Shown: piece after piece, positions 1 through 29,159 of the stretch
How the letters are laid out: each line of letters opens with the position of its first letter
Position numbering within the stretch: position 1 is the first letter of the stretch
Source: Promethearchaeum syntrophicum
Lineage (GTDB): Archaea > Asgardarchaeota > Lokiarchaeia > Sigyniarchaeales > Promethearchaeaceae
NCBI RefSeq assembly: GCF_008000775.2
Contig: NZ_CP042905.2
Location: 3,810,001 to 3,842,000, forward strand
Length of the DNA stretch: 32,000 nt
Direction: 5' to 3'
Translations under genes and position numbers: made by a program
Notes under the pieces: generated by a model
Seen by the model: the letters and a program-made list of their open reading frames with translations, nothing else
What the model was told of the DNA's origin: nothing
Databases searched by the model: none

Positions 1-189
1 AATGTTCTTCTCTTTATAATTTAGAAGCATTCCCTTTATTTTCTCATCTTCACCAAATGCCATCCAAATTTTTGTTGAGTCTGGATCCTGTTTATAATCC
101 ATAATAAAAAAGAAATATTCTTCTATACGTTCTCCAACAAAATCCCAAAAAATAGGTTCAGTTGTGGAATCAAGTAGGATGATTTTCAT
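1..189 (-). CDS. GNAT-associated paralogue, N-terminal fragment (gene continues beyond window start)
   Basis: Minus-strand ATG at 187-189. My translation is MKIILLDSTTEPIFWDFVGERIEEYFFFIMDYKQDPDSTKIWMAFGEDEKIKGMLLNYKEKNI. It is colinear with, and highly similar to, residues 1-63 of the 306..1076 ORF. Confidence 0.6.
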   Translation of the reverse strand, partial: MKIILLDSTTEPIFWDFVGERIEEYFFFIMDYKQDPDSTKIWMAFGEDEKIKGMLLNYKEKNI

Positions 190-1235: not shown

Positions 1236-1697
1236 ATGAGCGCTTTCAAAGCAGTTTTGGTAGGAGAAGCAGGTGTCGGCAAGTCAACATTATCTCGCAT
1301 GTTGAGATGTAAACCAGTTGCAGCTTTTAGAAGGACACCTACAATTGGTGTAAACATCGAACAGGTTAAAACTGATAACGGCAATATGTGTCTATGGGAT
1401 CTTGGTGGTCAAAGACGTTTTCAATTTATGTGGAATGAATTTATGCGAGGATCAGAATTAACAATTTTAGTAACTGATAGCAGTGCAGCTAATGTTATGA
1501 TGACCAAGGACATAATTGAGCGACATATGAATAATTCAGCCGCAAAGATCATCGCAATTGCAAATAAGCAAGATCTTAAAGGACGAATGAAACCCGATGA
1601 AATCGAGGCAGCATTGGGCGTTCCAACATTTGGAATGGTTGGAATCGAGTCGTCAAATGAAAAGAAATTAAAGAAGATAATTGAAAAGAGTCTTTAG
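1236..1697 (+). CDS. Ras-superfamily small GTPase, Arf/Roc-like
   Basis: G1 GEAGVGKS, G2 Thr in RTPTIGV, G3 WDLGGQ, G4 NKQD. The post-G4 segment DLKGRMKPDEIEAALG parallels the Arf pattern NKQDL...EI...LG. Only 153 aa, with no N-terminal amphipathic helix. Confidence 0.85.
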   Translation: MSAFKAVLVGEAGVGKSTLSRMLRCKPVAAFRRTPTIGVNIEQVKTDNGNMCLWDLGGQRRFQFMWNEFMRGSELTILVTDSSAANVMMTKDIIERHMNNSAAKIIAIANKQDLKGRMKPDEIEAALGVPTFGMVGIESSNEKKLKKIIEKSL

Positions 1698-1961: not shown

Positions 1962-3305
1962 TTGAAAAAAAAAATTTTAGTCGTATTTTTAGTTACTTCT
2001 TTTATTGTTCTCTTTTTAGGTCTTCCGACTTTGGGATCTGCAGTAAAAGATACAACAAAAATAGAACGGGATGTGTTGGCATTTTCTACTCTGGAAACTT
2101 ATACCGTAGAGGATTCAGTATCCAAATTTAGTCGAGAAGATTGGTTTCTTATTACAGATGTAGAACCTGGAATGATGACATTAGAAGTATCGTGGGGGAA
2201 TTCATACAATTTAAATTGTTATATTTCTACAACTGCTTCAAGATATACTGCCATAGCTCAAGGTATTACTGCTAATAATCCTGAAACTTGTGGTGTTGAT
2301 ATCCAAACTGCTGGAGATTATTATATTGGGATTTATTTTGCTTCAAGCGGACGAACCGTTGACACACCATATACAGCTGTTGCCACCTTCTATACTGGTC
2401 CTGGATCTGATGATGTAATAGATCCTGAAGTATCAATTACAGCTCCAGTTAATGGAGCTATTGTTTCCGATACAATTTCAATTACAGCAACAGCAAGCGA
2501 TGCAGAATCAGGAATAGATTATTTAGTATGCAATTTTGGGGGTACTAATCTAGGAGCTGATTCATCAAGTCCTTACTCATGGACTTATGATACGACCACA
2601 ATTTCGGATGGCATTTATACTCTTTCTGTAACAGCCTACGATATTGCAGGTAATTCCGCCTCAGAAATTATATCGGTGGAAACTAATAATGGAATTGTAG
2701 ACCCTGAAGGAGAAAAGATCGCTGTCTTCTTCTGGGCGAGCGACGCAGGAACTCAGGCAAATATCGATGAATATTGGGCAGTTTTACAAGCCCAAGGTTA
2801 TACTAAAAAGTTCGATTTTGGAGATACACCTGATTTTGAAGCAGACTTTGCAACTGTGGAAGCTTATGAGAACCCTGAAGATACTATTTTCTTCTATCTC
2901 TTTGGTCACGGGAACAATAATGGTGAAGACTCATTAACAGTTTTTGCCCCAGGAACTAGTTTAGTCTATTCAAGCGAACTCCGGGTTATGTTTGATACGT
3001 TGGATGCAGAGCGGATTGGTTATTTAATTGAATCTTGTCATTCCGGCGGATTTCCACTTGATTTTCAAGCAGAGCCATATTTAGCGATGTCTACATCAGA
3101 TGAGGACCATAATTCCTATGCTTTAAGCACTTTACCAGGGGAAGGATTATTCTCAGATGCGTTCTTTGACCACGTCTTAGATGGCTATAATGCTGTTGAC
3201 TCTTTCTATTTTGCTCGGCAAGTTGTCTTTGATAATGCTCGAAATGATCGTTTTGCTCAATTTCCATTAATAGAAGATTATTCTGTTTATGAATGGTTCG
3301 TTTAA
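1962..3305 (+). CDS. Secreted clan-CD cysteine peptidase (legumain/C13-like) with PPC-like and Ig-like modules
   Basis: N-terminal signal/TM (KKKILVVFLVTSFIVLFLGLPTLGSA). PPC-like segment (DWFLITDVEPGMMTLEVSW...AGDYYIGIYFAS). Ig-like module (PEVSITAPVNGAIVSDTISITATASDAESGIDY...YTLSVTAYDIAGNS). His-Gly/Cys dyad context IFFYLFGHG (His codon 2907-2909) and YLIESCHSGGF (Cys codon 3036-3038). Confidence 0.7.
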   Translation: MKKKILVVFLVTSFIVLFLGLPTLGSAVKDTTKIERDVLAFSTLETYTVEDSVSKFSREDWFLITDVEPGMMTLEVSWGNSYNLNCYISTTASRYTAIAQGITANNPETCGVDIQTAGDYYIGIYFASSGRTVDTPYTAVATFYTGPGSDDVIDPEVSITAPVNGAIVSDTISITATASDAESGIDYLVCNFGGTNLGADSSSPYSWTYDTTTISDGIYTLSVTAYDIAGNSASEIISVETNNGIVDPEGEKIAVFFWASDAGTQANIDEYWAVLQAQGYTKKFDFGDTPDFEADFATVEAYENPEDTIFFYLFGHGNNNGEDSLTVFAPGTSLVYSSELRVMFDTLDAERIGYLIESCHSGGFPLDFQAEPYLAMSTSDEDHNSYALSTLPGEGLFSDAFFDHVLDGYNAVDSFYFARQVVFDNARNDRFAQFPLIEDYSVYEWFV

Positions 3306-3792: not shown

Positions 3793-5682
3793 CTATCCTT
3801 CTGTTGGTTTTTCTAATTTTTCGATTTTTTCTGTTAAAATATCCACTTTTCTCTCTAACATCTTCAATCCTATCGTCAAACGATCTATTTTTCCTTGCTC
3901 TTTGTCATGGAGATCGATTTGTCGTTTTAATTGTTTGATATAATCATATAGAGTTTGACAAAATTCATCAAATTTCTCTATATCGCTAAAATCACATTCC
4001 ATTCCCAATTCCCTATTTAATCCGATTTTTGCCAGATCACCCCAATCTAGTTCCTTTGCTTTTACAGGAACAACCTGAACATTATACTCACGAGAGAGTT
4101 TAAGCTCATATTGGCAATCTACCGAATTTACTGAAGTAGGTGTGGCAATGAAGAGTACGAGTTGAGATTGTGGAACATTTTTATCCATAAAGCCATCAAT
4201 ATTTCCAGAAAGATCCCGTTCACAAAGAAATGCAATATCCACTTCTAATTGTTTTTGTAAAAATAAGCTTAACTGTTCCAATCGACAAGGTTCATAATCA
4301 ACAACAGCATGACTGATAAATACATTGATCGCCATCTTTTTCTTGCTATATTCTTTGATTTCTGGAAGTGTTTTTGCTGAAATAAGTTTGTCATTGAGTA
4401 CAAGAGGATTGTTATCAATTGAAAAATCAATCAGGTTATTTAATTTGAAAACTGAATATGGTAAATGAGTTAGCTGGTTGTTGTTAAGCGTTAAAATTTC
4501 TAATCGTGGAAAACTGCTTAGTTTATCTAGAAATTCTTTTAGATTATTATTATAAAGGTTGAGTGTTTGAAGATTGGATAAATTAAAAATCGATTTAGGA
4601 AGGAATTCTAATGAAGAATTTCCTGTAAGTTTTAATACAGTTAGAGATTTCAGATTTCCAATATGTTCTGGTAATTTCTTCAGTGATCGACAAGTTGTAA
4701 TTATTAGCGATTTTAACGAAATCAATTCTGTTAATCCATCCGAAATCACCTCCATTTTTCCAGAATTTATAATTATGGTTTCTAAACTCTTTAATTCTTT
4801 GAAATGATCTGGAAAATCATTAGCTACCAAAGTTTTAAGGCTTTTTAGATGAATGAATGATTGAGGAAATCGAATTATTTGTAGCGGGAGACTTAATTCT
4901 TCCAAAAACTCGATGTTTCCAATATGTTCTGGTAACTCTTGAATCTTAGTATCGGAAAGATCTAAAATTTTCAAAGATTTAAGACTTGCAATATCAGCAG
5001 GAAAAATTTTTAATGGATTATCGTGGAGCATTAATGTATGGAGATTTTCTTGAACAGACAATGCTTTTTCAATTTTTTCAATCAAATTATTTGATAAATT
5101 TAAAAATTTAAGGTTTTTTAGATGTTGTAAAAATTGTATTGAAACTATCTTGCAATTAGAGGCATCCAAATATTCAAGATTTTCCAATTTAATTAGTTCT
5201 TTATATAAATCAACAGCATTTGGAGCCCAATTTGGTTGACGCGTGGCGCGCAGTGCATCATCCACCGCTTTTCTTCTCTCTTCAATGGATTTATAAAATC
5301 TGTGTTGAGATTTTTGAAATTCAACTTGCCTTCTTTTGGTTTCATTTATAAATTCTGAAAAGATTTCTCCCCATGCACTAACGTCTATTGCTTTAAGGTT
5401 TGTGAGCTTCGAAATTTTGGGAATTCTTTTTATTAAATTTAATTTCTTTTCATTAATATTATCAAATCCCAATCCTAATTCCACAACATGTTGGTCTTTT
5501 GAAATAAAACCAAATTGATGTACCTTATATTTCTCGATCTGGTGTGTCTGTTCATCGATTTTATAATCATCCCATGTAATTTTATCTACATGTGATAAGG
5601 GAACACCAAATTGTTTTTCCAGTTCTTGCAGTACTTCAGCTTCCTCTTTTATCAATTCAATATTTTCGTATTTTTCTGACAT
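3793..5682 (-). CDS. LRR-TIR-coiled-coil protein
   Basis: About 11-12 leucine-rich repeats at roughly aa 165-445 (4348-5190), of the LPxxIGxLxxLxxLxLxxN type (QELPEHIGNIEFLEEL, KKLPEHIGNLKSLTVLKL, LQTLNLYNNNL, LEILTLNNNQLTHLP). The TIR-like domain starts at M450 (ATG 4333-4335): MAINVFISHAVVDYE...FLCERDLSGNIDGFMDKNVPQSQLVLFIATPTSVNSVDCQYELKL. The C-terminal heptad-rich tail is KRQIDLHDKEQGKIDRLTIGLKMLERKVDILTEKIEKLEK. No predicted TM segment or signal peptide. Confidence 0.75.
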   Translation of the reverse strand: MSEKYENIELIKEEAEVLQELEKQFGVPLSHVDKITWDDYKIDEQTHQIEKYKVHQFGFISKDQHVVELGLGFDNINEKKLNLIKRIPKISKLTNLKAIDVSAWGEIFSEFINETKRRQVEFQKSQHRFYKSIEERRKAVDDALRATRQPNWAPNAVDLYKELIKLENLEYLDASNCKIVSIQFLQHLKNLKFLNLSNNLIEKIEKALSVQENLHTLMLHDNPLKIFPADIASLKSLKILDLSDTKIQELPEHIGNIEFLEELSLPLQIIRFPQSFIHLKSLKTLVANDFPDHFKELKSLETIIINSGKMEVISDGLTELISLKSLIITTCRSLKKLPEHIGNLKSLTVLKLTGNSSLEFLPKSIFNLSNLQTLNLYNNNLKEFLDKLSSFPRLEILTLNNNQLTHLPYSVFKLNNLIDFSIDNNPLVLNDKLISAKTLPEIKEYSKKKMAINVFISHAVVDYEPCRLEQLSLFLQKQLEVDIAFLCERDLSGNIDGFMDKNVPQSQLVLFIATPTSVNSVDCQYELKLSREYNVQVVPVKAKELDWGDLAKIGLNRELGMECDFSDIEKFDEFCQTLYDYIKQLKRQIDLHDKEQGKIDRLTIGLKMLERKVDILTEKIEKLEKPTEG

Positions 5683-6236: not shown

Positions 6237-7490
6237 ATGAACAAAGATAAAAAAATAAAATATTCTGCCTTAATATTTTTAATTTTAACCAGTTTTTCAA
6301 TTATTAACGTTAAATCTATTAATGTAAGTAGCATTCAAAATTCAGGGTTTGATTATGACATATGGCATATGAGTGATAATCTAACAACGGATTATATGGA
6401 TATCTCATATAAACAAATATCACGTGAATCTGTATATGGTGATGATTATTTACAACGTTCTATAGAAATTAAATTCTTAGATGGAACTAATTCACAATTT
6501 TCTTATGCAATCGATTTATCATTCAATGATACAGGAGTGGACCTAGAAAATCATGCTGTTCTTGATTGGTCAAAATATAATGGAATATCCCAATACATTG
6601 AAACAGAAACTGGGTATGGAAATCTCACAATTGATACTCGTTATCTATTTTACGGAATGGCAATTGGAAAAGGTAATGCAAGTCAAATTGCTTTGGGAAA
6701 TTATACATGGACAAATGAACTTGGAGATGATTGTTGGCAATTAGGTCAAGAAAATGAAAGTGCGTTCATCGATTACGGCAATAAAAGTGTTTTTGGAGAG
6801 GTTATATATGAAACGTATAATTATACCTATGAAAATCAAGAATACAAAGATATCATGATCTATTTTAATGTTACAATGGATGGACAAATTGGATTTGAAA
6901 ATCAAATGAGATATCTACCAATCATTATGCCCATTCAGATACATCATAATGTCACTGAAACTTCTTATAAATATGGTTTTGATATGGATTTTTCAGAAGC
7001 TAAAGATTTCTCAACGAACAGTCAACATGAATTATCTGATGGGGATGAATATTTTCTTTTACAAACAGATAAACTTTCTGTATGGTATAGTATTTTTAAT
7101 CAAGAAGATGCTGGTCCAGATGGAGATATTAATCAATTTAGTTCAAATGAAAATAATGATATTGCAGAATTTAATGTAAATGGAATTCCAGTATATCAAC
7201 ATTTTCCAACTTATTATAAATTGGATAATGAAACCTCGGAACGAGAAACTACAAGATTATACTATGAAATTGGTTCAAAAGATCCGGTTTATTTTTCAAC
7301 AATGTTCTTATTATTTGATGGGTTTAAATATAACCAAACATCAAGATTTTATTTTGATCCAAAAATCATTGTTCCAAATATATTAGAGAAATCATCCAAC
7401 ATTCCGGGATTTTCTTTTTATCCTTTAATAAGTGCACTATTTGTTTCGATTTTCCTAATAAAAATCCGTTTAAAAAAGAACTTAAATTAA
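6237..7490 (+). CDS. Secreted, sequon-rich surface protein with PGF-CTERM-like anchor
   Basis: N-terminal signal (KIKYSALIFLILTSFSIINVKS). I count 13 N-x-S/T sequons in 417 aa. The C-terminus is NIPGFSFYPLISALFVSIFLIKIRLKKNLN: PGF (7404-7412), a hydrophobic helix, then a basic tail. Confidence 0.6.
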   Translation: MNKDKKIKYSALIFLILTSFSIINVKSINVSSIQNSGFDYDIWHMSDNLTTDYMDISYKQISRESVYGDDYLQRSIEIKFLDGTNSQFSYAIDLSFNDTGVDLENHAVLDWSKYNGISQYIETETGYGNLTIDTRYLFYGMAIGKGNASQIALGNYTWTNELGDDCWQLGQENESAFIDYGNKSVFGEVIYETYNYTYENQEYKDIMIYFNVTMDGQIGFENQMRYLPIIMPIQIHHNVTETSYKYGFDMDFSEAKDFSTNSQHELSDGDEYFLLQTDKLSVWYSIFNQEDAGPDGDINQFSSNENNDIAEFNVNGIPVYQHFPTYYKLDNETSERETTRLYYEIGSKDPVYFSTMFLLFDGFKYNQTSRFYFDPKIIVPNILEKSSNIPGFSFYPLISALFVSIFLIKIRLKKNLN

Positions 7491-7990: not shown

Positions 7991-8103
7991 TTTCAAAGCA
8001 ATTAAGAAATCAATATTTTTTAAAAGAATCTGTTTTAGTATAAAGGTAAAATACAAAGTATTTTTTTAGGAATAAATAAATTTTGTGTGTTTTTCTCATT
8101 ATT

Positions 8104-10671
8104 ATGGATAAATTAGATGATATTCATTTTAGACTGAAAAATCATGGAGATTTTGCAAGTCCCAATGTCGAGAAAAATTACCGACCTTCATTAGAACTTG
8201 AACCAATTCATCAAATTATTAAACTTAAATTTGATTTACCTAATAAAAAAGCTGAAGGGGTTGTTACTACAACTATTAAAGCTAATGGAATTGCACCAAA
8301 CCACATTAAATTTGATGCGATGGATTTAAATATTCTCTCTGTCAAAGGACCAAATAGATGGGATTATGATGGGAAATATATTGACTTATATTGGGAATTA
8401 CCTTTCACGAAAGGAGAGAAACGAGATGCCACTATTGAATACGAAATAGCTAATCCAATTACAGGTATGTATTTTAGTTATCCCGATGAAAAGTATCCAG
8501 ATCGACCAAAATATGCAGTAACTGATAATGAATCAATAAGGGCTCGATACTGGCTTCCTTGTGTTGACCACCTATCTATTCGTTGTGGGGTTGATTACTT
8601 CCTTACATCGAATAAAGAACATTTCATCTTAGCAAATGGAAAATTAGTTGAAGAAAGAGATAATGGAAATGGAACAAAAACGGCTCATTGGAATCAAAGT
8701 TTTCCAAGCCCAAGTTATTTACTAACATTAGCCGTAGGAGAATTTATTGAATATAAAGACAATCCCGCTGATGCAGGAAAGGGTAAAATTCCCTTAGCTT
8801 ATTATACAACCCAAAATTTTAAAGTAGAAGATTTAAAGCGCGCCTTTGATAAAACGGGTAAATATTTAGCGTGGTTTAATAAAAAATTACAATGCCCTTT
8901 AGAATGGGACAAATACTACCAAATTGCAACGGCTCATCATGGAGGAGCAATGGAAAATATTAGTTTTGTTACTTGGGGCGATTTTGCAATAGTTAATGAA
9001 AAAGAATCTAAAGAATTTCAATATATTGTCGATCTAATTAACGTCCATGAAATGGCGCATAGCTGGTTTGGAGATATGATCGTTTGTAATGAGTTTAGTA
9101 CGGCTTATTTAAAAGAAAGCTTCGCTGTTTTTATGGAGTCGATTTATTTCAAGGAAAATGTAAATTATGACACTTATCTTTACGAACTCTATTTAAATGC
9201 AAATAAATATATGGAAGAATCCGATAACAAGTATGCTAGACCTATTGTAACTAACAAATATGACAGTTCTTGGGATATGTATGATATGCATCTTTATCCT
9301 GGAGGAGCATGGCGTATTCATATGTTACGAAATATCGTGGGAGAAAATGTCTTTTGGGAAGCAGTCACAGACTATTTGAATACCTATAAAGGAAAAACTG
9401 TTGAAACACTCGATTTCCAGAGAAAACTGGAGGAACATTCTGGTTTAAGTTTAGAAGCTTTCTTTGAACAATGGTTTTACAGCCCCGGCTATCCGAAATT
9501 GAAAGTTTCCTTTTCATATAATGACAAAACTCATCTCGGGTCCCTAAAGGTAGAACAAACTCAAGAAGATAAGAAGAAGAAAATTGGAATTTTTAAGTTT
9601 CCATTAGATGTAAAATATGAAATTGATGGAAGAATAATTACTCAGACATTTCAGATAAACGAAAAAGAGCAAACACTATTTATACGTTGTGATAAAAAAC
9701 CCAAACAAATTGTTCTTGATCCAAATTTTATAACTCTCTTCTCTTTGGAATTTAATCCAGGATCCGATATGTTAATTCACCAGCTTCGATCAGATGCAAA
9801 TAATATTATTGATCGAATTCGAGCTGCAGGTGAGTTAGCGAAAGAAGGTAAAATGAGCAATTTGAAAGCTATTGAAGAAGCGTATAACAAGACCGATTTC
9901 TGGGGAATAAAGAATCAGTATGCAAAAATCCTTGCAAAATCACCTAATTTCGAAGGAATTAAGATTATAATTAGAATTTTAGAAACTGAAACAGATCCAA
10001 TGGTTTTAAAAGAATTAATTGGATCTTTAATGAATTCTCGCTATGAAATCGTGTTTGAAGCTATGAAAAAATATCTCCAACGTGAAGATAAGCTATATTG
10101 GGCAACGTATCGAGCATTATTAGTAATGGGATCGCAGCGAAATGAAAAAGCTTTTGAGTTCTTAAACAGTTATCAAATAGATGAGGATTTTAAATTCATC
10201 ATACAAAAGGGATTAAATACTGCAATTGGAAAAACTCGCTCAGAAAAAGCCATTGATTATTTATTAGAGCGTTTACCATATGGAAAAGAACCAGAATATG
10301 TAAGAACCTCAACTATCAGTGCATTAGGAGAAGTTACGCAATGGTCAGAGAAATATATAAAAGAAAAAGTTATGAATCAGTTAACAGATTTACTAAAAAC
10401 TGAAAAAAATGAGAATGTAATTCAAACAATTAGTCGAACTTTAAGTGGGTTTAAAGATGCTCAAGTCATTTCTTCAATCGAAAATGCAAAATTTAAGATG
10501 GCCACTCAAGATCATCCTTCTGTAGATCGTCGCATCAAGTCGATAACTAAGGGAAAAACTGCTGAGAAAGAAAAAGCTCAACTTCAAACAGATTTAGATG
10601 AAATAAAAAAGAAAATGAAAAAATTATTTGCCAAAGTTGAAGTTTTAGAAGCAAATTCTAAAAAGTATTGA
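8104..10671 (+). CDS. M1-family zinc aminopeptidase (aminopeptidase N-like) with C-terminal HEAT-like repeats
   Basis: Exopeptidase motif GGAMEN; zinc motif HEMAHSWFGD with a downstream Glu (LKESFAVFME). The C-terminal roughly 280 aa are helical-repeat-like (RIRAAGELAKEG, RTSTISALGEV). The ORF track starts at a TTG (8083); the ATG at 8104 (MDKLDD) is more plausible. Confidence 0.9.
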   Translation: MDKLDDIHFRLKNHGDFASPNVEKNYRPSLELEPIHQIIKLKFDLPNKKAEGVVTTTIKANGIAPNHIKFDAMDLNILSVKGPNRWDYDGKYIDLYWELPFTKGEKRDATIEYEIANPITGMYFSYPDEKYPDRPKYAVTDNESIRARYWLPCVDHLSIRCGVDYFLTSNKEHFILANGKLVEERDNGNGTKTAHWNQSFPSPSYLLTLAVGEFIEYKDNPADAGKGKIPLAYYTTQNFKVEDLKRAFDKTGKYLAWFNKKLQCPLEWDKYYQIATAHHGGAMENISFVTWGDFAIVNEKESKEFQYIVDLINVHEMAHSWFGDMIVCNEFSTAYLKESFAVFMESIYFKENVNYDTYLYELYLNANKYMEESDNKYARPIVTNKYDSSWDMYDMHLYPGGAWRIHMLRNIVGENVFWEAVTDYLNTYKGKTVETLDFQRKLEEHSGLSLEAFFEQWFYSPGYPKLKVSFSYNDKTHLGSLKVEQTQEDKKKKIGIFKFPLDVKYEIDGRIITQTFQINEKEQTLFIRCDKKPKQIVLDPNFITLFSLEFNPGSDMLIHQLRSDANNIIDRIRAAGELAKEGKMSNLKAIEEAYNKTDFWGIKNQYAKILAKSPNFEGIKIIIRILETETDPMVLKELIGSLMNSRYEIVFEAMKKYLQREDKLYWATYRALLVMGSQRNEKAFEFLNSYQIDEDFKFIIQKGLNTAIGKTRSEKAIDYLLERLPYGKEPEYVRTSTISALGEVTQWSEKYIKEKVMNQLTDLLKTEKNENVIQTISRTLSGFKDAQVISSIENAKFKMATQDHPSVDRRIKSITKGKTAEKEKAQLQTDLDEIKKKMKKLFAKVEVLEANSKKY

Positions 10672-14804: not shown

Positions 14805-16457
14805 TTAGCGTTTTCGCTTGAAAACGAATATAATTCCGATCCCTACACATAAAAGGATTAAACTTAAGCTGGGTCCGGGGATATTTAATGATACTTCGAT
14901 TAATACATCATAATATGCTCCGAAATAGCACCTATCATCTAAGGTAGGATCAATTAACAATCCTACATGAATTTGACCTTCATATGCCCCAGGATAATGC
15001 ATTTCCCAACTCTTATTCACGCTTGCATCAGCAGCCAAATTTCCGATCGTTTGATTTTGACCTCCATTGTTCACATATTCTGGTCCACCATCACTTTTTA
15101 TACCTGATTCTATCTCAAAATTGTATGTATCTGGACCGAGATTTTTCATCTCCATACTAACTATGACATTATCCGGGTATGTAGTGTTAAATGCAGATAA
15201 TGCTAATGTATATTCAACTTCATGACCCCATTCCCCATTTATCGTTTGCAATATTTCCATTCTTCCTCTATAACTTGTTAGTAACAGTACATCATCCGTT
15301 ACCGGATTCACGCAAATTTCATGGTTACCTTCTCCTTGGGTATATACCGAATAGGAAAAGTCGGTAAGAGTCTCGGAAACCCAACCACCCGAGCGATTAG
15401 TGGTATAAACTATCTGTTGAATTTCATTCTCTGTAACAACGCTGAAAACTAAAACGTTATCGTTAGCATCTAAAGCCATTTCTGGGTAATTTGAAACAGG
15501 TCCGATTTTATATGCATCCGAACCATCGGTCGTGGCATTTATTACATCATAATATAACCCAGAATTTTCTTCGTCCCAAGAGCCATTTTCCAGCTGATAA
15601 ATTTGGTTGTAAATAAAGTGAATTGTATCGGTAGAATCGATTTTTATATTTGGTGATTCGCACTTCGAACCATAAATTGGGGATTTCTCCGCAATGCACC
15701 GAGGAGAAGATTCAATCCCACTGGGCGAGATTGTTACATAATATATTGAATTATTGACCTGGAATACAATGTGGGCCAAACCCGTCGAGTCAACAGCCAT
15801 TTTAGGGAAGAATACATAATGAAGAGGGTGTGATTCCTCGTAGCTAATAATATGTCGGGTATAGTTAACGGATTCCGAATCTTCCTCATCAGCAAATTCA
15901 GCAAGGGTAAGATTAGTATATACTAACCCATCATCATCATAACTGATCATATAGATCATTGAACCTGATGGGTTTCCCGTGATTCCAAATGAGAGTTGAC
16001 TTCCTCCGACCCCTTTCTGGTACCAAGATCCATCAGCAGTTTTATTTGTAATATAATTAACAAAAGTTGCTCCATGGGAGTAAATGTGCACATCCCCTTC
16101 ATTATCTACATAAATATCATTGGCTTGAAAGTTGACATATGTAGGATCGATTAATAATTCAGGTTCTGACCAACTTCCCGTAGCATTATCAATATAGTAA
16201 ACATTATGTCCTTCTTCCCAAGTACCGCTATACACAATTGATACAGTTCCTGTTGGACCAATAGCCATATCTCCTTCAAGAGTAAAATCATCCAAATACT
16301 CCCAATAGGGTACTATAGCCGTTTTTGGTCCCACTATTAGTGTTTCTGTTGGGTATCCGTAGCCATTTACCTGATTAATTGCTAAATTGCTTCCTATCAA
16401 AAATACGAAGATCCCCAGCAGAAAAATTCTTTGCTTTGTATGTTTCATAAAATTCAC
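14805..16457 (-). CDS. Secreted beta-propeller-like protein with CARDB/Ig-like module and C-terminal membrane anchor
   Basis: Signal peptide (RIFLLGIFVFLIGSNLAINQVNG). Seven spaced repeats of a D/P-x-x-G/D-x-hydrophobic strand: PTGTVSIVYS, DNEGDVHIYS, NPSGSMIYMIS, DSTGLAHIVF, DSTDTIHFIY, DANDNVLVFS, PVTDDVLLLTS. CARDB-like VIVSMEMKNLGPDTYNFEIE. C-terminus NIPGPSLSLILLCVGIGIIFVFKRKR. 11 N-x-S/T sequons. Confidence 0.6.
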   Translation of the reverse strand: MNFMKHTKQRIFLLGIFVFLIGSNLAINQVNGYGYPTETLIVGPKTAIVPYWEYLDDFTLEGDMAIGPTGTVSIVYSGTWEEGHNVYYIDNATGSWSEPELLIDPTYVNFQANDIYVDNEGDVHIYSHGATFVNYITNKTADGSWYQKGVGGSQLSFGITGNPSGSMIYMISYDDDGLVYTNLTLAEFADEEDSESVNYTRHIISYEESHPLHYVFFPKMAVDSTGLAHIVFQVNNSIYYVTISPSGIESSPRCIAEKSPIYGSKCESPNIKIDSTDTIHFIYNQIYQLENGSWDEENSGLYYDVINATTDGSDAYKIGPVSNYPEMALDANDNVLVFSVVTENEIQQIVYTTNRSGGWVSETLTDFSYSVYTQGEGNHEICVNPVTDDVLLLTSYRGRMEILQTINGEWGHEVEYTLALSAFNTTYPDNVIVSMEMKNLGPDTYNFEIESGIKSDGGPEYVNNGGQNQTIGNLAADASVNKSWEMHYPGAYEGQIHVGLLIDPTLDDRCYFGAYYDVLIEVSLNIPGPSLSLILLCVGIGIIFVFKRKR

Positions 16458-24899: not shown

Positions 24900-27800
24900 A
24901 TGCAAAATTCTTCAACAAATCAGAATTATATTGGAATTAATATTGGATCCGTCTCTGTTAATGTTGTAATTTCTGATAATTTTGGAACTTTTAAGTGCGA
25001 AAAAAAAGCCCATTTTGGAAATCCACAGCAAATTTTAAAGGAAATTCTTGAAAAATACGAAAATGGAGACCAGAAATTTTTTGGAGTTTCGGGTACATTT
25101 GGAATTGTTTCTGAAATTACAGCTATTGAAAGAGCACTTGCCTCTTTAGAAAAAAAATATGATCTAATTCTTTCTCTCGGGGGGGAGGCATTCATTTTAT
25201 ACGTTTTGGATTCAAATGGACACATTGTAAACATTTTATCTCAAGATAAATGTGCTGCTGGAAGTGGAGAATTTTTCATACAACAAATTGAAAGATTAAA
25301 TCTGCCATTGAATGAAGCAATTGACTTAGCAGAAAAAGGTGAGGATATTCAGATAGCATCGCGCTGTTCAGTTCATTGTAAATCAGATATAACTCATAAA
25401 TTGAATAAAGGAGAAGCATCAATTGAAGATGTTCTTTGCTCTTTAGTATCCAATATGATCAATAAAGGGATTGGTCTAATTTATCAATCTCGAGTTAATT
25501 TAACAAACCTTTTAATAATTGGGGGACTTTCACTTAACAAAGTTGTTCTTCAGAAATTACGAAAGGCTTTACCTGAAGCACATGTAGATAAACTTGAATT
25601 TAGTCACGTTTTTGAAGCATACGGAACATCTTTGTTAGTACAGGATAATCCAGAATACAAAATTCCAAAATTAATCACAAATAAAACATTTTCTATGCTT
25701 CCTTCATTGCACGAATATGGACATCTTGTTAAAATCATGGAAAAACCAGGTGTCAATGAAAAATTTGATCCTCAATCTTCATATATATTAGGTATTGATG
25801 TCGGATCAACAACTACTAAAGCAATTTTGATGCATCCGAAAAATAATGCAATAATTGCATCCCATTATGGTCGCACAAATGGAAACCCAATTGAAGCTAC
25901 AAGATCATGTTTAAGGGAAATTATCAAACAAACGGGTGATGAAAGAGGAAAAATAAGTTTAGTTGGAGTAACTGGTTCAGGAAGACAAGTTGTAGCAGCT
26001 TATTTAGGAACTCCTGCAGTTTTTAATGAAATTTCTGCTCATTCGATTGGAGCGGCCTATTTTGATTCAGAAGTAGATACAATATTTGAGATAGGAGGCC
26101 AAGATGCTAAATATATGCTCTTGCAAAATGGCGTCCCAGTTGATTATGCAATGAATGCATCATGTTCAGCTGGGACTGGAAGTTTTCTTGAAGAAAGCGC
26201 CAAATGTGATTTAGATATTCATGTTTATGATATTAGTGATATTGCATTAAAAGCTCCAAAAGCTGTAAGATTTAAAGCAGATTGTGCCGCTTTTATTAAT
26301 TCTGATATTCGTACTGCCCTTCAAGAGGGCTATTCTAAACAGAATATTATTAGCGGACTTGTTTATTCTATTGTTAATAATTATCTAAATAAAGTTAAGG
26401 GGACTAGACCAATAGGAGATAAAATTTTCTTCCAAGGAGGCGTCGCAAAAAATAATGCTGTTGGTTATGCATTTGCCCAAGTAACTGGAAGAGAGATAAT
26501 TATCCCTCCGTTTCCAGAATTGATGGGTGCCTTCGGAATCGCATTAATCGCTAAATCGAAACTGGAAAAAAGAGAAATTTCATCAATGTCCTCCTCTACA
26601 ACATTGAAATCATTAATTGAACCATCATTAAAACATCTTGGTAATTTTACCTGTAAATCTTGTGATAATTTTTGTCAAATTGAAAATTATGCAGTTGGAA
26701 ATCGAAAATTCCCTTTCGGAGGGAGATGTACTAAATATGAACATTTATGGAAAGGGCAGAAATCAGCTTCGGAGAAGAAAGATTATGTATCTTTTCGTAA
26801 TGATTTAATGTTTCCGGGTAATGTTTTAATAGATAAAAAAAAAAAAATCAATGAGAAAAATCAAATTGGAATACCAAGAGCATTATTAACTCACAGTTTG
26901 TTTCCACTCTTTTCTACTTTTTTCAAAGAAATCGGATATGAAGTAGTATTGTCTGATATTGAACCTGATGCAGAATTACTACCCAATGCTCCACTGTGTT
27001 ATCCAATTCAAATTTTGCATGGTGCCATCGCCAATTTGATCAAACAAAACATTAAATTAATCTTTTTACCATATATTTACAGAATGAAGAAAGGAGAAGG
27101 ATGGTTTGATTCAACTTTTTGTCCAATTTCCCAATCTAGTTCTTATTTAGTTGCTCCAAATTTTGAAAAAGTTGAAATTCTAAAACCTGAATTAGAATTT
27201 TCAGAAGGATATGAAAAATGTCAAGAATTAATAAATTTAGCTATAGAAAAGTTATATATCCCCCATAAAATGAGTGTGGCGGCTTATAATAAAGCAGTAC
27301 GCCATCAAAATAATGTAGAAACCCAATTTATTAAAAAAGGTAGGGAAATTTTAAAAAAACTATCCAAGTCGAATGATACAGGAATCATTGTAGTAGGGAG
27401 AAGCTATAATGTTTTCCCTAAAGAAACTTCGCAATCTATTCCCAAAAAAATAACGAGTATGGGAGTTACTGTAATTCCTTTTGATTTCTTAGAAAAAAAA
27501 TCAGTAACAACTTATCCTTGGTTCTTTGCTAACTATGTTTCAGAAGCTGTTGAGCTAGTTAAAAAGCATGAGAATTTGTTTTTACTTTACATTAATAGTT
27601 ATAGTTGCACAATGGATGCTTTTGTTCAGAATTATGTACGTACAGAAATGAAATCTAAACCGTATTTACTCATGGAATTAGATGCCCATATGGCGGATGC
27701 AGGAACTCAGACTAGAATCGAAGCTTTTTTGGAAATTATTAAAAATTATCGTCATTCTTTACAGAACACTTCATCTTCAGTGTATCACATGGCAAAAGCT

Positions 27801-29159
27801 GAAACTGAAAATGGAAAAGCAGTAATTACTACATCCTCTGGTGAAAAATTGGACCCTAATGATCCTCGTGTAAAAATATATCTCCCCCCTTTCTCAACTT
27901 TCCATACCGATTTAGCGGAAAAACTTCTTACAAAATTTGGATTTAATATGGGACATACAGGTGATATAAAATTAGAATATCCCGTAGAAGGATTGAAACA
28001 CTGTTCAGGAAAAGAATGTAATCCCCTACCGGCAGTATTAGGGCATATTATGCATTTAGTAAAAAATCGTGAACCTGGAGAGGTTATAGGGTATTTTATG
28101 TTACGAGGAGGGCAACCGTGTGTTGTTTTTAGTTATTTCCAATTTTTAGAACAGTTTTTAACAAAAAATCGAATAAAGGATGTGTTTATTTTTTGTTTCG
28201 ACAAGTATAATGATTTCATGGGAGTTAATATATTAGAATATCTTCAACAAGGTCCAAAAATTGTAGTTTTAGGAGATATTATGAATGAAATTGAAAGCGC
28301 ACTTGAAGTTGTCGGGAAAGGTAAAAGTTTAGAAAAGTTTCATTCATATTGGAGAAATTTCTTGGAAAGCTTCACTGATATACAAGATATAAATCGTGAA
28401 ATGAACATACTTATCCAGAAAATTAAAAAATTGCCAATAATCGGATCACCCCAAATGTTTCCTAAAGTTTGTTTAACAGGAGATTTCTTTGTTCGGTTTA
28501 GCCCATTTTTCCTTCATGATCTAAAATCAGCTTACACGAAGAATAAGATTATTGTAAAATCATCAGAATTATTTGAACTTTTTACCTATGGTGTACCCTT
28601 TGGTAACATGGTTAGCTATAAAGTCCGAGATCAATATTTACAAAAGATACGGGCAAAATTTCATGGGAAAGATCGGATTTGGAATGATTTTTCTTTTGGA
28701 TTTTATGCAAGCCAAATTGCATATTTTGTGATGAGAATTATTGAAAAAAGAATGCGCAAAAAATTCGAAAAAACCGGTCTTCTTTTCTCTAAACCAACGG
28801 ACATCATGAAAATTGTAAAAAATGCAGAACCTCATATCAATCCAAATATTTTTGGGGAAGCTATCTTGAATATTGGAAAAGGAATTGAAATAATAAATGA
28901 TCGAGAATTTAATGGGCTTATCCTAATCGGACCCCAATATTGTTTACCTTATCGTATATCTCAAGCAATTCTTCAACCTATCTTTATTGAAAATAAATAT
29001 CCGTTTTTAGTATTTGATGCAGAAATTACAGCGATGTCTCCAAATATGAAAAGATTAATTTCTGCTAATATCGAACAGATCAACCGTAGATTTAAGAGAA
29101 TGGTTCCTGTTTTATCTGAAGACACTGTTAAAATGGAAGGAAAAAAGATATTCCTTTAA
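24900..29159 (+). CDS. Giant fusion: two BcrAD/BadFG-type (HgdC-like) activase ATPase domains + DUF2229-type C-terminal region
   Basis: ATPase 1 (about aa 1-260): IGINIGSVSVN, DKCAAGSGEFF, ASRCSVHCKSDI. ATPase 2 (about aa 295-555): LGIDVGSTTTKA, NASCSAGTGSFLE, KADCAAFINSDI, FQGGVAKN. Cys cluster C-x2-C-x3-C-x17-C at 26652-26729. The long remainder (about 850 aa) resembles the CoA-enzyme-activase-associated DUF2229 region (GIPRALL..., VVGRSYN..., LTGDFFVRF...). Confidence 0.8.
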   Translation: MQNSSTNQNYIGINIGSVSVNVVISDNFGTFKCEKKAHFGNPQQILKEILEKYENGDQKFFGVSGTFGIVSEITAIERALASLEKKYDLILSLGGEAFILYVLDSNGHIVNILSQDKCAAGSGEFFIQQIERLNLPLNEAIDLAEKGEDIQIASRCSVHCKSDITHKLNKGEASIEDVLCSLVSNMINKGIGLIYQSRVNLTNLLIIGGLSLNKVVLQKLRKALPEAHVDKLEFSHVFEAYGTSLLVQDNPEYKIPKLITNKTFSMLPSLHEYGHLVKIMEKPGVNEKFDPQSSYILGIDVGSTTTKAILMHPKNNAIIASHYGRTNGNPIEATRSCLREIIKQTGDERGKISLVGVTGSGRQVVAAYLGTPAVFNEISAHSIGAAYFDSEVDTIFEIGGQDAKYMLLQNGVPVDYAMNASCSAGTGSFLEESAKCDLDIHVYDISDIALKAPKAVRFKADCAAFINSDIRTALQEGYSKQNIISGLVYSIVNNYLNKVKGTRPIGDKIFFQGGVAKNNAVGYAFAQVTGREIIIPPFPELMGAFGIALIAKSKLEKREISSMSSSTTLKSLIEPSLKHLGNFTCKSCDNFCQIENYAVGNRKFPFGGRCTKYEHLWKGQKSASEKKDYVSFRNDLMFPGNVLIDKKKKINEKNQIGIPRALLTHSLFPLFSTFFKEIGYEVVLSDIEPDAELLPNAPLCYPIQILHGAIANLIKQNIKLIFLPYIYRMKKGEGWFDSTFCPISQSSSYLVAPNFEKVEILKPELEFSEGYEKCQELINLAIEKLYIPHKMSVAAYNKAVRHQNNVETQFIKKGREILKKLSKSNDTGIIVVGRSYNVFPKETSQSIPKKITSMGVTVIPFDFLEKKSVTTYPWFFANYVSEAVELVKKHENLFLLYINSYSCTMDAFVQNYVRTEMKSKPYLLMELDAHMADAGTQTRIEAFLEIIKNYRHSLQNTSSSVYHMAKAETENGKAVITTSSGEKLDPNDPRVKIYLPPFSTFHTDLAEKLLTKFGFNMGHTGDIKLEYPVEGLKHCSGKECNPLPAVLGHIMHLVKNREPGEVIGYFMLRGGQPCVVFSYFQFLEQFLTKNRIKDVFIFCFDKYNDFMGVNILEYLQQGPKIVVLGDIMNEIESALEVVGKGKSLEKFHSYWRNFLESFTDIQDINREMNILIQKIKKLPIIGSPQMFPKVCLTGDFFVRFSPFFLHDLKSAYTKNKIIVKSSELFELFTYGVPFGNMVSYKVRDQYLQKIRAKFHGKDRIWNDFSFGFYASQIAYFVMRIIEKRMRKKFEKTGLLFSKPTDIMKIVKNAEPHINPNIFGEAILNIGKGIEIINDREFNGLILIGPQYCLPYRISQAILQPIFIENKYPFLVFDAEITAMSPNMKRLISANIEQINRRFKRMVPVLSEDTVKMEGKKIFL

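Follow-up and report, generated by a model that had tools for sequence, protein, structure and literature searches.

A soluble LRR-TIR protein of an Asgard archaeal family with a conserved glutamate at the catalytic position of TIR NADases

Within the window, that is, the whole stretch of 32,000 nucleotides of Promethearchaeum syntrophicum DNA that was analysed, one gene encodes a soluble single-chain protein in which leucine-rich repeats (LRRs) are followed by a TIR domain and which belongs to an Asgard family. The 100% identical protein of the host is annotated solely as 'leucine-rich repeat domain-containing protein', so that the TIR domain is at present overlooked. By alignment, residue E526 is placed where TIR NADases have their catalytic Glu; NADase activity is plausible. 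We tentatively favour, at somewhat under an even chance, the reading that the protein is a ligand-gated, oligomerising, NAD(P)+-cleaving signalling enzyme of an Asgard-specific family.

Table 1. Features of the LRR-TIR gene, in positions of the window
Feature	Positions	Strand	Description
Whole gene	3793..5682	-	629-aa cytosolic LRR-TIR-coiled-coil protein; ATG start, stop 3793-3795
N-terminal cap domain, aa 1-104	5371..5682	-	Helix and four-stranded sheet, then two LRR-like strands; model pLDDT about 90
Three-helix insert, aa 105-165	5188..5370	-	Helices 105-127, 133-148 and 156-163 in the model
LRR solenoid, aa 166-428, final repeat to 438	4399..5187	-	12 repeats of 18-24 aa, LxxLxLxxNxLxxLPxxIGxLxxL type
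LRR C-terminal cap helices and linker, aa 429-451 (DKLISAKTLPEIKEYSKKKMA)	4330..4398	-	Helices 429-437 and 439-449 in the model
TIR domain, aa 452-591	3910..4329	-	TIR_2 29.0 bits; Foldseek top match AbTir
Codon GAG, E526	4105..4107	-	Glutamate of alpha-C, where TIR NADases have the catalytic Glu
Codon, D522	4117..4119	-	Four residues ahead of E526; AbTir W204 position, Trp/Tyr/Phe in enzymatic cyclase TIRs
C-terminal tail, aa 592-629	3796..3909	-	Near-invariant HDKEQGKIDRLTxGLK, then about 3.5 coiled-coil heptads

In the model, the cap, insert, LRR, TIR and tail account for the entire chain (Table 1), with a helical linker of 23 aa connecting the LRR to the TIR. Signal peptide and transmembrane helix are absent; Kyte-Doolittle means over 19 residues reach at most 1.14, with no membrane span and an acidic N-terminus. 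Neither Pfam nor NCBIfam scans of the full protein gave an NTPase domain, and the Pfam scan gave no Roc or COR profile match. The N-terminal cap matches no Pfam family; W37, H55 and F57-G58-F59 are invariant in the orthologue alignment, and the motif E..VL..LE...G..IP is common to the paralogues. Conservation is lowest in the helical insert (mean pairwise identity 36%, dN/dS 0.22-0.50) and peaks in the cap helices and linker at aa 429-451 (mean pairwise identity of 88% in the 21 orthologues), which suggests that the LRR may be coupled rigidly to the TIR. The LRR profiles are strongly matched by the full protein (LRR_14 1.2e-25, LRR_4 2.6e-23, LRR_8 2.9e-17 in Pfam), and AlphaFold predicts 12 regular beta-strand repeats over aa 168-438, plus cap-like strands at 65-70 and 98-100. 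Motifs of the LPxxIGxLxxL type include ELPEHIGNIEFL and KLPEHIGNLKSL, and a Foldseek search of the full model against the PDB gives as best matches the LRR-Roc-COR of Roco from C. tepidum (6hlu, E 2.9e-15), Leptospira LRR proteins and SHOC2. The tail is predicted as a long helix (594-624) at modest confidence (pLDDT 39-77), with hydrophobic residues at a spacing of 3-4 (I599, L602, L606, L609, V613, L616, I620, L623). Profiles, model and hydropathy thus bear out the architecture proposed by the first-pass annotation, namely LRR, TIR and coiled coil without a membrane span; its open reading frame and quoted strings were all found exactly, and its dozen or so LPxxIGxLxxL repeats of Shoc2/Roco-like subtype and its heptad tail were likewise recovered.

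On profile and model evidence, the domain at aa 452-591 is a true TIR. The Pfam TIR_2 profile (PF13676, gathering score 28 bits) scores 26.2 bits with the full protein, slightly below that threshold, and 29.0 bits (E 1.6e-6) with aa 445-629 alone, slightly above it; 44 of 70 family representatives match it at E <= 0.001, the best with an E of 4e-28. TIR_2 was the sole match of the isolated domain, for which no profile of nucleoside deoxyribosyltransferase-like families was matched. The modelled fold is flavodoxin-like and nearest to known TIRs, with a core pLDDT of about 90: five parallel strands (betaA 452-457, VFISHA; betaB 481-486; betaC 508-513; then betaD and betaE) alternate with helices alphaA, alphaB, alphaC (521-532), alphaD and alphaE (568-591), and the BB loop, CERDLSGNID, lies between betaB and alphaB. 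The top Foldseek match of this model is AbTir (7uxu_A; target-normalised TM-score, TMt, 0.72; 22% identity), after which come MAL, SPARTA, RPS4 (4c6t among the matches) and TLR15, with MAL and MyD88 filaments among the leading fold matches; BcmB, a CMP N-glycosidase (4jen, TMt 0.65), and DNPH1 (9i9q, TMt 0.66) are also retrieved with scores near those of TIRs. By sequence, solved TIRs are matched weakly (E 0.04-0.4), the best PDB matches being the TIRs of TLR15, TLR2 and TLR6, with the common motifs C-x-x-ERD-x-x-G and S-x-x-C-x-YEL. A specific affinity to TLR TIRs was rejected, since profile scores are alike (13.8-15.8 bits) for TLR15, TLR2, TLR6, Cat1 and C. elegans TIR-1 and do not discriminate among them.

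Retained in the TIR are the Ser-His of betaA, a BB loop and the Glu of alpha-C. Both profile and pairwise alignments set E526 against the Glu of WCxYEL in TLR2, TLR6 and TLR15 and of WCWDEL in Cat1; it is invariant in the 21 orthologues, and an alpha-C Glu is found in 201 of 206 family domains (97.6%). Further polar residues conserved in the family accompany it (S457, H458, C487, E488, S517, S520, D522 and C523), and according to the secondary structure of the model the conserved polar residues map at or just past the C-terminal ends of betaA, betaB and betaC. Animal TLR TIRs act as scaffolds, and the alignments place the conserved alpha-C Glu in them as well, so that the Glu by itself is no proof of catalysis. 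Among enzymes, the catalytic Glu lies at the N-terminal part of alpha-C in both AbTir (E208) and SARM1 (E642); the NADase activity of AbTir requires S140 of betaA, which also carries a Ser-His (S140, H141), together with E208, and the archaeal TIR protein TcpO is a proven NADase. The aromatic residue (W/Y/F) that is the hallmark of cADPR cyclases four residues ahead of the Glu is absent, D522 being found instead, and in the family this position is Asp in 160 of 207 domains, Ala in 16, Pro in 8 and Asn in 6. In AbTir, W204 stacks on the nicotinamide mimic and W204A lowers or abolishes activity; equivalent mutations abolish the activity of L6 and ROQ1, the equivalent change is tolerated by TcpC, and an aromatic stands at this position in every TIR for which cyclic ADPR production is known. 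The first-pass annotation had predicted a TIR-like domain with the Glu of CQYELKL at the catalytic position, and had named the lack of a TIR match or fold, or an unconserved Glu, as grounds for abandoning it. What was found is a TIR_2 match, a fold match led by AbTir, LRR profile matches alongside, and a Glu that the alignments place at that position and that is conserved in orthologues and family; the proposed S-x-WC-x-x-E box is incomplete, its Trp position being Asp (D522).

More than 200 clusters, almost exclusively from Asgard archaea, make up the family defined by the TIR module; the module is mostly fused to LRRs, and each genome has several stable paralogues. About 15 tandem pairs consist of an upstream copy that has jointly lost the SHA motif, the BB loop and the Glu (changed to Ile) and a downstream copy that keeps all three. 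Canonical and degenerate copies also lie in tandem with overlapping stop and start codons. The joint loss suggests that these three elements belong to a single functional site, which is probably catalytic, and canonical and degenerate copies side by side are, judged by their sequences, the usual enzyme/pseudo-enzyme pattern. In addition, the overlapping stop and start codons and the several paralogues suggest the formation of hetero-complexes. One paralogue group sits directly downstream of a CHAT caspase-like protease and resembles a conflict system. The searchable literature yielded no account of an Asgard LRR-TIR, in agreement with the earlier statement that this single-gene arrangement is uncharacterised in archaea, and the family is apparently an undescribed, new Asgard variant of repeat-sensor TIR proteins.

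Comparison with known systems places the TIR closest to the prokaryotic coiled-coil TIR NADases of the AbTir/TcpO type, with which it has in common the TIR_2 family, the best fold match, the betaA Ser-His, the BB loop, the alpha-C Glu and an adjoining coiled coil, TcpO also providing the archaeal precedent for NADase activity. Unlike in these proteins, the coiled coil is short and C-terminal and a 12-repeat LRR is fused N-terminally; moreover, the counterpart of AbTir W204 is Asp, which predicts no cyclic-ADPR product, and the enzyme activity is putative. As in animal Toll-like receptors, the LRR precedes the TIR and the C..ERD..G and S..C.YEL motifs of TLR15, TLR2 and TLR6 are present, but signal peptide and transmembrane helix are missing and the LRRs are of the cytosolic Shoc2/Roco rather than the ectodomain type; the TLR matches are marginal (E 0.04-0.3), so that no specific evolutionary link can be drawn from them. 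Plant TNLs and the bacterial NLR-like and AVAST proteins (STAND NTPases) also combine a repeat sensor and a TIR effector in one polypeptide, and the canonical/degenerate TIR pair RPS4/RRS1 resembles the Asgard tandem pairs. In contrast to all of these, no NB-ARC, NACHT or other P-loop switch lies between sensor and TIR, and the domain order is reversed with respect to TNLs. The similarity to Roco and SHOC2, which are LRR scaffolds for small GTPases, concerns LRR subtype and curvature and is confined to the LRR part, Roc-COR being absent. Thoeris ThsB likewise has a TIR with a catalytic-type Glu, and the isolated TIR gives a weak PADLOC match to it (E 1.1e-3); however, ThsA is absent nearby, and the cyclic ADPR-type signals of ThsB depend on the aromatic residue lacking here.

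In the enzymatic reading that we tentatively favour, the LRR surface would bind a conserved protein ligand, probably endogenous or slowly evolving, and the coiled coil would keep the protein dimeric or small-oligomeric. Binding of the ligand would then bring the TIRs together head-to-tail and complete their active site, in which E526 would cleave the nicotinamide-ribose bond of NAD(P)+ or of a related nucleotide. The expected product would be linear ADP-ribose and nicotinamide, or a transfer product, rather than a cyclic ADPR isomer, as position -4 is Asp and not aromatic. The output would thus be NAD+ consumption or ADPR-type signalling in a multi-paralogue LRR-TIR network, and not that of a mobile anti-virus cassette. 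The Asp counterpart of W204, the presence of the Glu in TLRs, the weak matches to solved TIRs and the tail pLDDT of 39-77 are points against this mechanism.

In a further reading, the protein would be a dedicated sensor of antiviral abortive infection, with the LRR sensing a viral protein and the TIR depleting NAD+ or making a signal, so that the infected cell is killed or arrested. Most characterised prokaryotic TIR proteins work in defence, and the weak ThsB-like match of the isolated TIR, the paralogue group linked to the CHAT protease and the helical insert as the fastest-evolving region would all fit such a sensor. Against it, the full-length protein has 0 matches in PADLOC-DB 2.0 at E <= 1, and Pfam analysis of 20 neighbouring ORFs in the 32-kb window and of four orthologue neighbourhoods shows housekeeping and metabolic genes only. 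Defence genes, ThsA or any other effector gene were found neither in the window nor in these neighbourhoods, three distant loci included, and the hypothesis of a defence island was therefore rejected. When 394 ORFs from 58 loci were clustered all against all, no conserved operon partner emerged beyond single orthologous groups, the most widely common neighbour family occurring at 10 of the 58 loci and in one orthologous group only. Furthermore, defence sensors are typically patchy and fast-evolving, whereas the orthologues are kept at 53-100% identity and dN/dS against an 89%-identical orthologue is 0.078 overall, 0.047 in the TIR and 0.067 in the LRR. Selection on the gene, including its LRRs, is strongly purifying; the gene is functional and is not a mobile cassette. 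We thus regard the antiviral sensor-effector, which the first-pass annotation had proposed, as quite unlikely and lacking contextual support; the presence of a TIR domain alone does not make a defence island.

The same housekeeping-like context and purifying selection would suit a TIR that acts as a non-enzymatic module of homotypic assembly, as in TLRs, MyD88 and MAL, with a structural role for the Glu, through which the Asgard LRR-TIR paralogues, degenerate ones included, would co-assemble into signalling complexes. This somewhat unlikely alternative would account for the paralogues and the overlapping canonical/degenerate tandem copies, for the absence of the nicotinamide-stacking Trp, for the TLR15, TLR2 and TLR6 TIRs as best PDB sequence matches and for the MAL and MyD88 filaments among the leading folds. 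However, the closest match in structure is a TIR enzyme, the adaptor TIRs of MyD88, MAL and the like are not known to carry the alpha-C Glu, and a Glu kept across nearly the whole family and lost jointly with SHA and BB loop behaves more like an active-site residue than an interface residue. A different chemistry on the TIR fold appears distinctly improbable; it would consist of an N-glycosidase or transferase activity on NAD-capped RNA, on nucleoside monophosphates, as for BcmB and DNPH1, or on nucleic acids, for which the 2',3'-cNMP synthetase activity of plant TIRs is a model. The near-TIR fold scores of BcmB and DNPH1 point in this direction, as do the Asp at -4 and the conserved Cys and His, which differ from canonical NADase pockets, and TIR proteins, an archaeal one included, are reported to decap NAD-RNA (PMC10937652); yet the profiles match TIR_2 only. 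Beyond these, the stable paralogue groups, the tandem pairs and the CHAT-protease-linked operon could indicate that LRR-TIRs make up a vertically inherited network of cytosolic signalling across the whole Asgard lineage, corresponding in prokaryotes to, and possibly an evolutionary source of, the eukaryotic LRR-receptor/TIR-adaptor logic; the chemistry of this network would differ from that of cADPR-producing TIRs given the Asp in place of the active-site Trp; we consider this very improbable.

Animals, plants and bacteria all share TIR domains as a tool of innate immunity, and no known prokaryotes are closer to eukaryotes than the Asgard archaea. With the expansion and stable inheritance of a soluble LRR-TIR family there, a TLR-like fusion is found in the lineage nearest to eukaryotes. 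P. syntrophicum is among the few cultured Asgard archaea, which brings the protein within experimental reach, and the Asp-for-Trp signature together with the canonical/degenerate pairs prompts the question whether this TIR subtype is a catalyst and, if so, of which reaction. For comparison, a survey of E. coli TIR systems remarked that LRRs and similar TLR features are apparently lacking in them.

A few candidate relationships were dismissed. The N-terminus matches AAA_PrkA weakly (E 0.007, under the cut-off), and the tail matches to Phage_Gp23 (E 0.0013-0.015), DUF5886 and SNAPIN (E 0.25) are weak and were taken to reflect coiled-coil composition. Rfam and tRNA scans gave no RNA genes in the window. 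A gene for an Arf/Roc-like GTPase is located at a distance of 2 kb; a functional link to it was rejected, as this neighbour is kept in the 89%-identical relative only and not at distant loci. A second, word-indexed homologue search with the TIR profile retrieved no more than 16 fragments and contributed little.

The target gene is a single long ORF with an ATG start and 629 codons for amino acids, in a window of ~31% G+C; the identical P. syntrophicum protein of this Asgard archaeon is annotated merely as 'leucine-rich repeat domain-containing protein'. Within a 554-bp intergenic region, the ATG is directly preceded by a purine-rich stretch, and ~60-70 nt 5' of it lies an A/T-rich, TATA-like element. 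The leucine-rich repeats (LRRs) are matched by the Pfam profiles LRR_14 (1.2e-25), LRR_4 (2.6e-23) and LRR_8 (2.9e-17) over ~aa 160-450, and the full-length AlphaFold2 model, built with 21 orthologues (mean pLDDT 84.5), provides the layout listed in the table. The tail displays 3-4 hydrophobic spacing (I599, L602, L606, L609, V613, L616, I620, L623; ~3.5 heptads) and is preceded by the motif HDKEQGKIDRLTxGLK, which is near-invariant among orthologues. There is no transmembrane segment, since the highest 19-residue hydropathy mean is only 1.14, and no signal peptide at the N-terminus (MSEKYENIELIKEE). The protein is a soluble LRR solenoid rigidly joined to a TIR domain in which all active-site-like residues are present and conserved, and a short coiled coil ends the chain; Pfam, model and hydropathy thus bear out the first-pass annotation, which had described LRRs, a TIR and a heptad tail without a membrane span.

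Coordinates of the target gene, its parts, neighbouring genes and family loci
Feature	Position	Strand	Basis or remark
Target LRR-TIR gene	3793..5682	-	629 aa
E526 codon	4105-4107	-	GAG
N-terminal cap	helix 12-25, four strands, LRR-like strands 65-70 and 98-100		AlphaFold2 model
Three-helix insert	aa 105-163		AlphaFold2 model
12 regular LRRs	strands at 171, 193, 216, 239, 262, 284, 302, 325, 349, 373, 396, 419		AlphaFold2 model; spacing 18-24 aa
Two cap helices after LRRs	aa 429-449		AlphaFold2 model
Beta-alpha domain	aa 452 to ~591		AlphaFold2 model
TIR_2 match	aa 454-544		Pfam
Terminal helix	up to aa 624		AlphaFold2 model
Small GTPase	1236-1697	+	153 aa; Arf/Roc/Ras-like (Arf 4e-21, Roc 1.9e-14)
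C13 legumain-like peptidase	1962-3305	+	Big_7 domain, hydrophobic N-terminus
Asn-rich protein	6237-7490	+	417 aa; hydrophobic termini, without Pfam match
Predicted M1 aminopeptidase	8083-10671		similarity to Peptidase_M1 gene of syntenic locus L005
550-aa ORF	14805-16457	-	GTG start
1419-aa fusion protein	24900-29159	+	two BcrAD_BadFG ATPase stretches, DUF2229, HGD-D-like segment
Tandem LRR-TIR pair (example)	L035:913-3294, L035:3291-5693	+, +	further loci L038, L040-L042, L046-L055
CHAT protease and LRR-TIR (example)	L017:848-4276, L017:4296-5654	+, +	further loci L022, L024, L025, L029, L032

The C-terminal domain is almost certainly a TIR. With the full-length sequence TIR_2 reaches 26.2 bits, slightly below the gathering score of 28 bits; with aa 445-629 in isolation it reaches 29.0 bits (E 1.6e-6). 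When aa 440-629 were modelled on their own with 25 orthologue and paralogue domains (core pLDDT ~90) and the model was compared with the PDB by Foldseek, the top match was AbTir with the NAD+ mimic 3AD (7uxu_A; E 3.2e-4, target-normalised TM-score 0.72, 22% identity), and the other top TIR matches were the MAL filament, SPARTA TIR-APAZ, a Bacillus cereus TIR, RPS4, Hydra TRR-2 and TLR15. The TIR first proposed by eye is therefore backed by both profile and fold. The closest solved TIRs by sequence, namely TLR15, TLR2 and TLR6, then Cat1 and C. elegans TIR-1, give weak (E 0.04-0.4) and mutually consistent matches. In particular, TPTSVNSVDCQYEL of the target pairs with SPSFVNSCWCQYEL in TLR15, FVKSEWCKYEL in TLR2 and YLKSDWCWDEL in Cat1, so that E526 is, by alignment, the alpha-C glutamate, at the position assigned to it in the first pass. 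Characterised TIR NADases use a catalytic Glu (AbTir E208, TcpO E279, ThsB E85). In an end-to-end alignment of 21 full-length orthologues from Promethearchaeota/Lokiarchaeota MAGs (53-89% identity), E526 is invariant, as are S457-H458-A459, C487-E488, D490-L491, N494-I495, S517, S520, D522 and C523. AbTir E208, TcpO E279 and ThsB E85 presumably occupy the same alpha-C position as E526.

The target gene is functional and under strong purifying selection. Mean pairwise identity is 88% in the LRR cap and linker, 75% in the TIR, 59% in the N-terminal cap, 58% in the LRR and 36% in the helical insert; in parallel, dN/dS against the 89%-identical orthologue is 0.078 overall, 0.047 in cap and TIR and 0.225 in the insert, while the LRR value of 0.067 in this comparison gives no sign of diversifying selection.

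The TIR-tail region belongs to a larger family. Searching 1.84 billion cluster representatives by phmmer with aa 445-629 as query recovered 308 proteins at E <= 0.001, 217 of them at E <= 1e-10. Among 70 scanned representatives, 50 carry LRRs, nine LVIVD beta-propeller repeats, eight TSP3 repeats and a few WD40, and TIR_2 is detected in 44 at E <= 0.001 (best 4e-28). A scan for DLxG[ND]I[DNE]xFM in one genome per GTDB species identified 53 loci, at most three per genome and nearly all Asgard (Promethearchaeota, Hermod-, Thor-, Hod- and Odinarchaeota). Members also occur on low-G+C contigs binned as Anoxychlamydiales, Ignavibacteria and 'Actinomycetia bacterium' (loci L039 and L055, protein P0003); L039 and L055, found by the motif scan, have Asgard-like G+C, the tandem arrangement of L055 is identical to that of Asgard genomes, and the 'Actinomycetia' member shares 85% identity with the target. 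These contigs in public MAGs probably belong to Asgard archaea and were mis-binned. Among 208 family domains, the alpha-C Glu is found in 201/206, C523 in 198/207, S517 and S520 in ~95%, S457 in 184/197 and H458 in 174/197; position 522 is Asp in 160/207 and Ala, Pro or Asn in the rest. Two 946-aa proteins of Promethearchaeota (P0023, P0026) hold two LRR-TIR units per chain, the second TIR retaining the C.YE/C.YK region but neither SHA (SST/CGT instead) nor the CE.DL motif. A 128-aa protein on a 107-kb contig (P0271) is 95% identical over 67% of the TIR-tail query and may be a split or truncated orthologue copy in a close relative.

The target does not have the S-x-WC-x-x-E box in full, as had been read into it: the Trp is replaced by D522. 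The corresponding residue of AbTir, W204, lies four residues before E208 and makes a stacking contact with the base of the NAD+ mimic. W204A lowers activity and reduces 2'cADPR production from 93% to 24%, and it abolishes AbTir activity in another assay; TcpC tolerates the equivalent change, which abolishes L6 and ROQ1 activity. An aromatic residue was present at the W204 position in all 12 cyclase TIRs examined, and the position is less conserved in TIRs that are inactive or make ADPR only. Since Asp occupies it in the Asgard family, we predict by analogy that these TIRs, if active, would act as hydrolases or transferases and not as cADPR-isomer cyclases, or would use another substrate.

Our tentative proposal, whose chance of holding as a whole is a little short of even, is that the LRR would bind a conserved partner protein, the coiled coil would pre-assemble dimers or small oligomers, and a ligand-driven rearrangement would bring the TIR domains into a composite active site as in AbTir, SARM1 and SPARTA, where E526 would cleave the N-glycosidic bond in NAD(P)+ or in a related nucleotide, giving a non-cyclic product. 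That the TIR is instead a scaffold devoid of enzymatic activity appears rather unlikely. At ~15 Asgard loci two LRR-TIR genes lie in tandem, the stop codon of the first overlapping the start codon of the second. The downstream copy retains FISHA, CEQDLSGNID and S..S.DC.HEL (consensus of downstream copies FISHA / CE.DL.GNID / DC.HEL), whereas the upstream copy has lost Ser-His, carries a deletion of the BB-loop segment and has Ile for Glu. Joint loss here of elements strictly kept elsewhere is what one expects if Ser-His, BB loop and Glu form one functional site; it resembles the pairing of enzyme and pseudo-enzyme in the RPS4/RRS1 TIRs and moderately favours a catalytic over a purely structural E526. 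A different chemistry on the TIR fold is quite improbable: the N-glycosidases BcmB and DNPH1, further down the Foldseek list, reach TM-scores of 0.65-0.66, similar to those of TIRs, so the fold alone is compatible with related chemistry, but sequence profiles of the domain match TIR_2 only.

A dedicated antiviral abortive-infection sensor, as suggested in the first pass, would overlap mechanistically with the proposed NAD(P)+ cleavage and differ in biological role; we consider it improbable, as the genomic context (the window and four orthologue neighbourhoods) lends no support and reveals no defence island. The locus of the 89%-identical orthologue is syntenic with the window, and those of the 62%, 56% and 54% orthologues have no neighbours in common with it and are likewise metabolic. 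In PADLOC, the full-length protein has no match and the isolated TIR only a weak ThsB-type one (E 1.1e-3). When 394 ORFs from 58 family loci were clustered, no neighbour was common to the whole family; common neighbours are confined to single orthologous groups, one with a hexapeptide transferase, ThiF, Roadblock and LSM, another with a 1142-aa CHAT protease directly upstream, a radical SAM protein, a PNP_UDP_1 phosphorylase and a wHTH protein. Thus, the target gene behaves as a stand-alone, vertically inherited gene and not as a mobile defence cassette. At six loci, a CHAT/caspase-like protease (PF12770, 3e-34; weak PADLOC BovA match) lies 20-50 nt 5' of a 450-aa LRR-TIR paralogue, possibly a CHAT+TIR operon of conflict-system type; these paralogues look more like a conflict system.

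By analogy, the closest working likeness may be the prokaryotic coiled-coil TIR NADases AbTir and TcpO, to which the target adds a repeat sensor. It shares its domain logic with TLRs but lacks their signal peptide and transmembrane helix, and, unlike TNLs and bacterial NLR-like proteins, it has no STAND NTPase; its LRR resembles those of Roco proteins, without their Roc-COR domains, and of SHOC2, as had been noted from the repeat subtype. In the literature searched, mostly outside subscription journals, no description of Asgard or prokaryotic LRR-TIR proteins was found, in line with the earlier remark that this single-gene arrangement is uncharacterised in archaea; such fusions may appear in earlier surveys of domain architecture. 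An Asgard defence-system survey names TIR solely within catalogued system names, e.g. 'Rst2TM TIR-NLR', and a study of E. coli TIR systems describes TLR features such as LRRs as seemingly absent from bacterial TIR systems. Fold and fusion logic are not categorically new; among repeat-sensor TIR proteins, this family is Asgard-specific; its active-site signature is unusual and its paralogue structure informative, and it merits a biochemical test.

The window further encodes a GNAT acetyltransferase, an Arf/Roc-like small GTPase, a C13 peptidase, a cupin, MsrB, endonuclease dU, an RNase III-like protein, an RpoL-like protein, a methyltransferase, enolase, a metallophosphoesterase, ornithine cyclodeaminase, a thiolase-like protein, an acyl-CoA dehydrogenase, a 1419-aa dehydratase activase and CoA transferases. 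The small GTPase gene lies 2 kb from the target; the adjacency is retained in the 89%-identical relative (L005) and absent at more distant orthologous loci. The flanking peptidase and Asn-rich protein genes, both for predicted surface proteins, are missing from the otherwise syntenic L005 and are therefore lineage-specific insertions or deletions. The 550-aa ORF, with no Pfam match at E <= 1e-4, lies in a region whose G+C (0.36-0.38) is above its surroundings. The 1419-aa fusion looks like a 2-hydroxyacyl-CoA dehydratase activase, and its gene adjoins acyl-CoA dehydrogenase, thiolase-like and CoA-transferase genes, a neighbourhood consistent with amino-acid fermentation.
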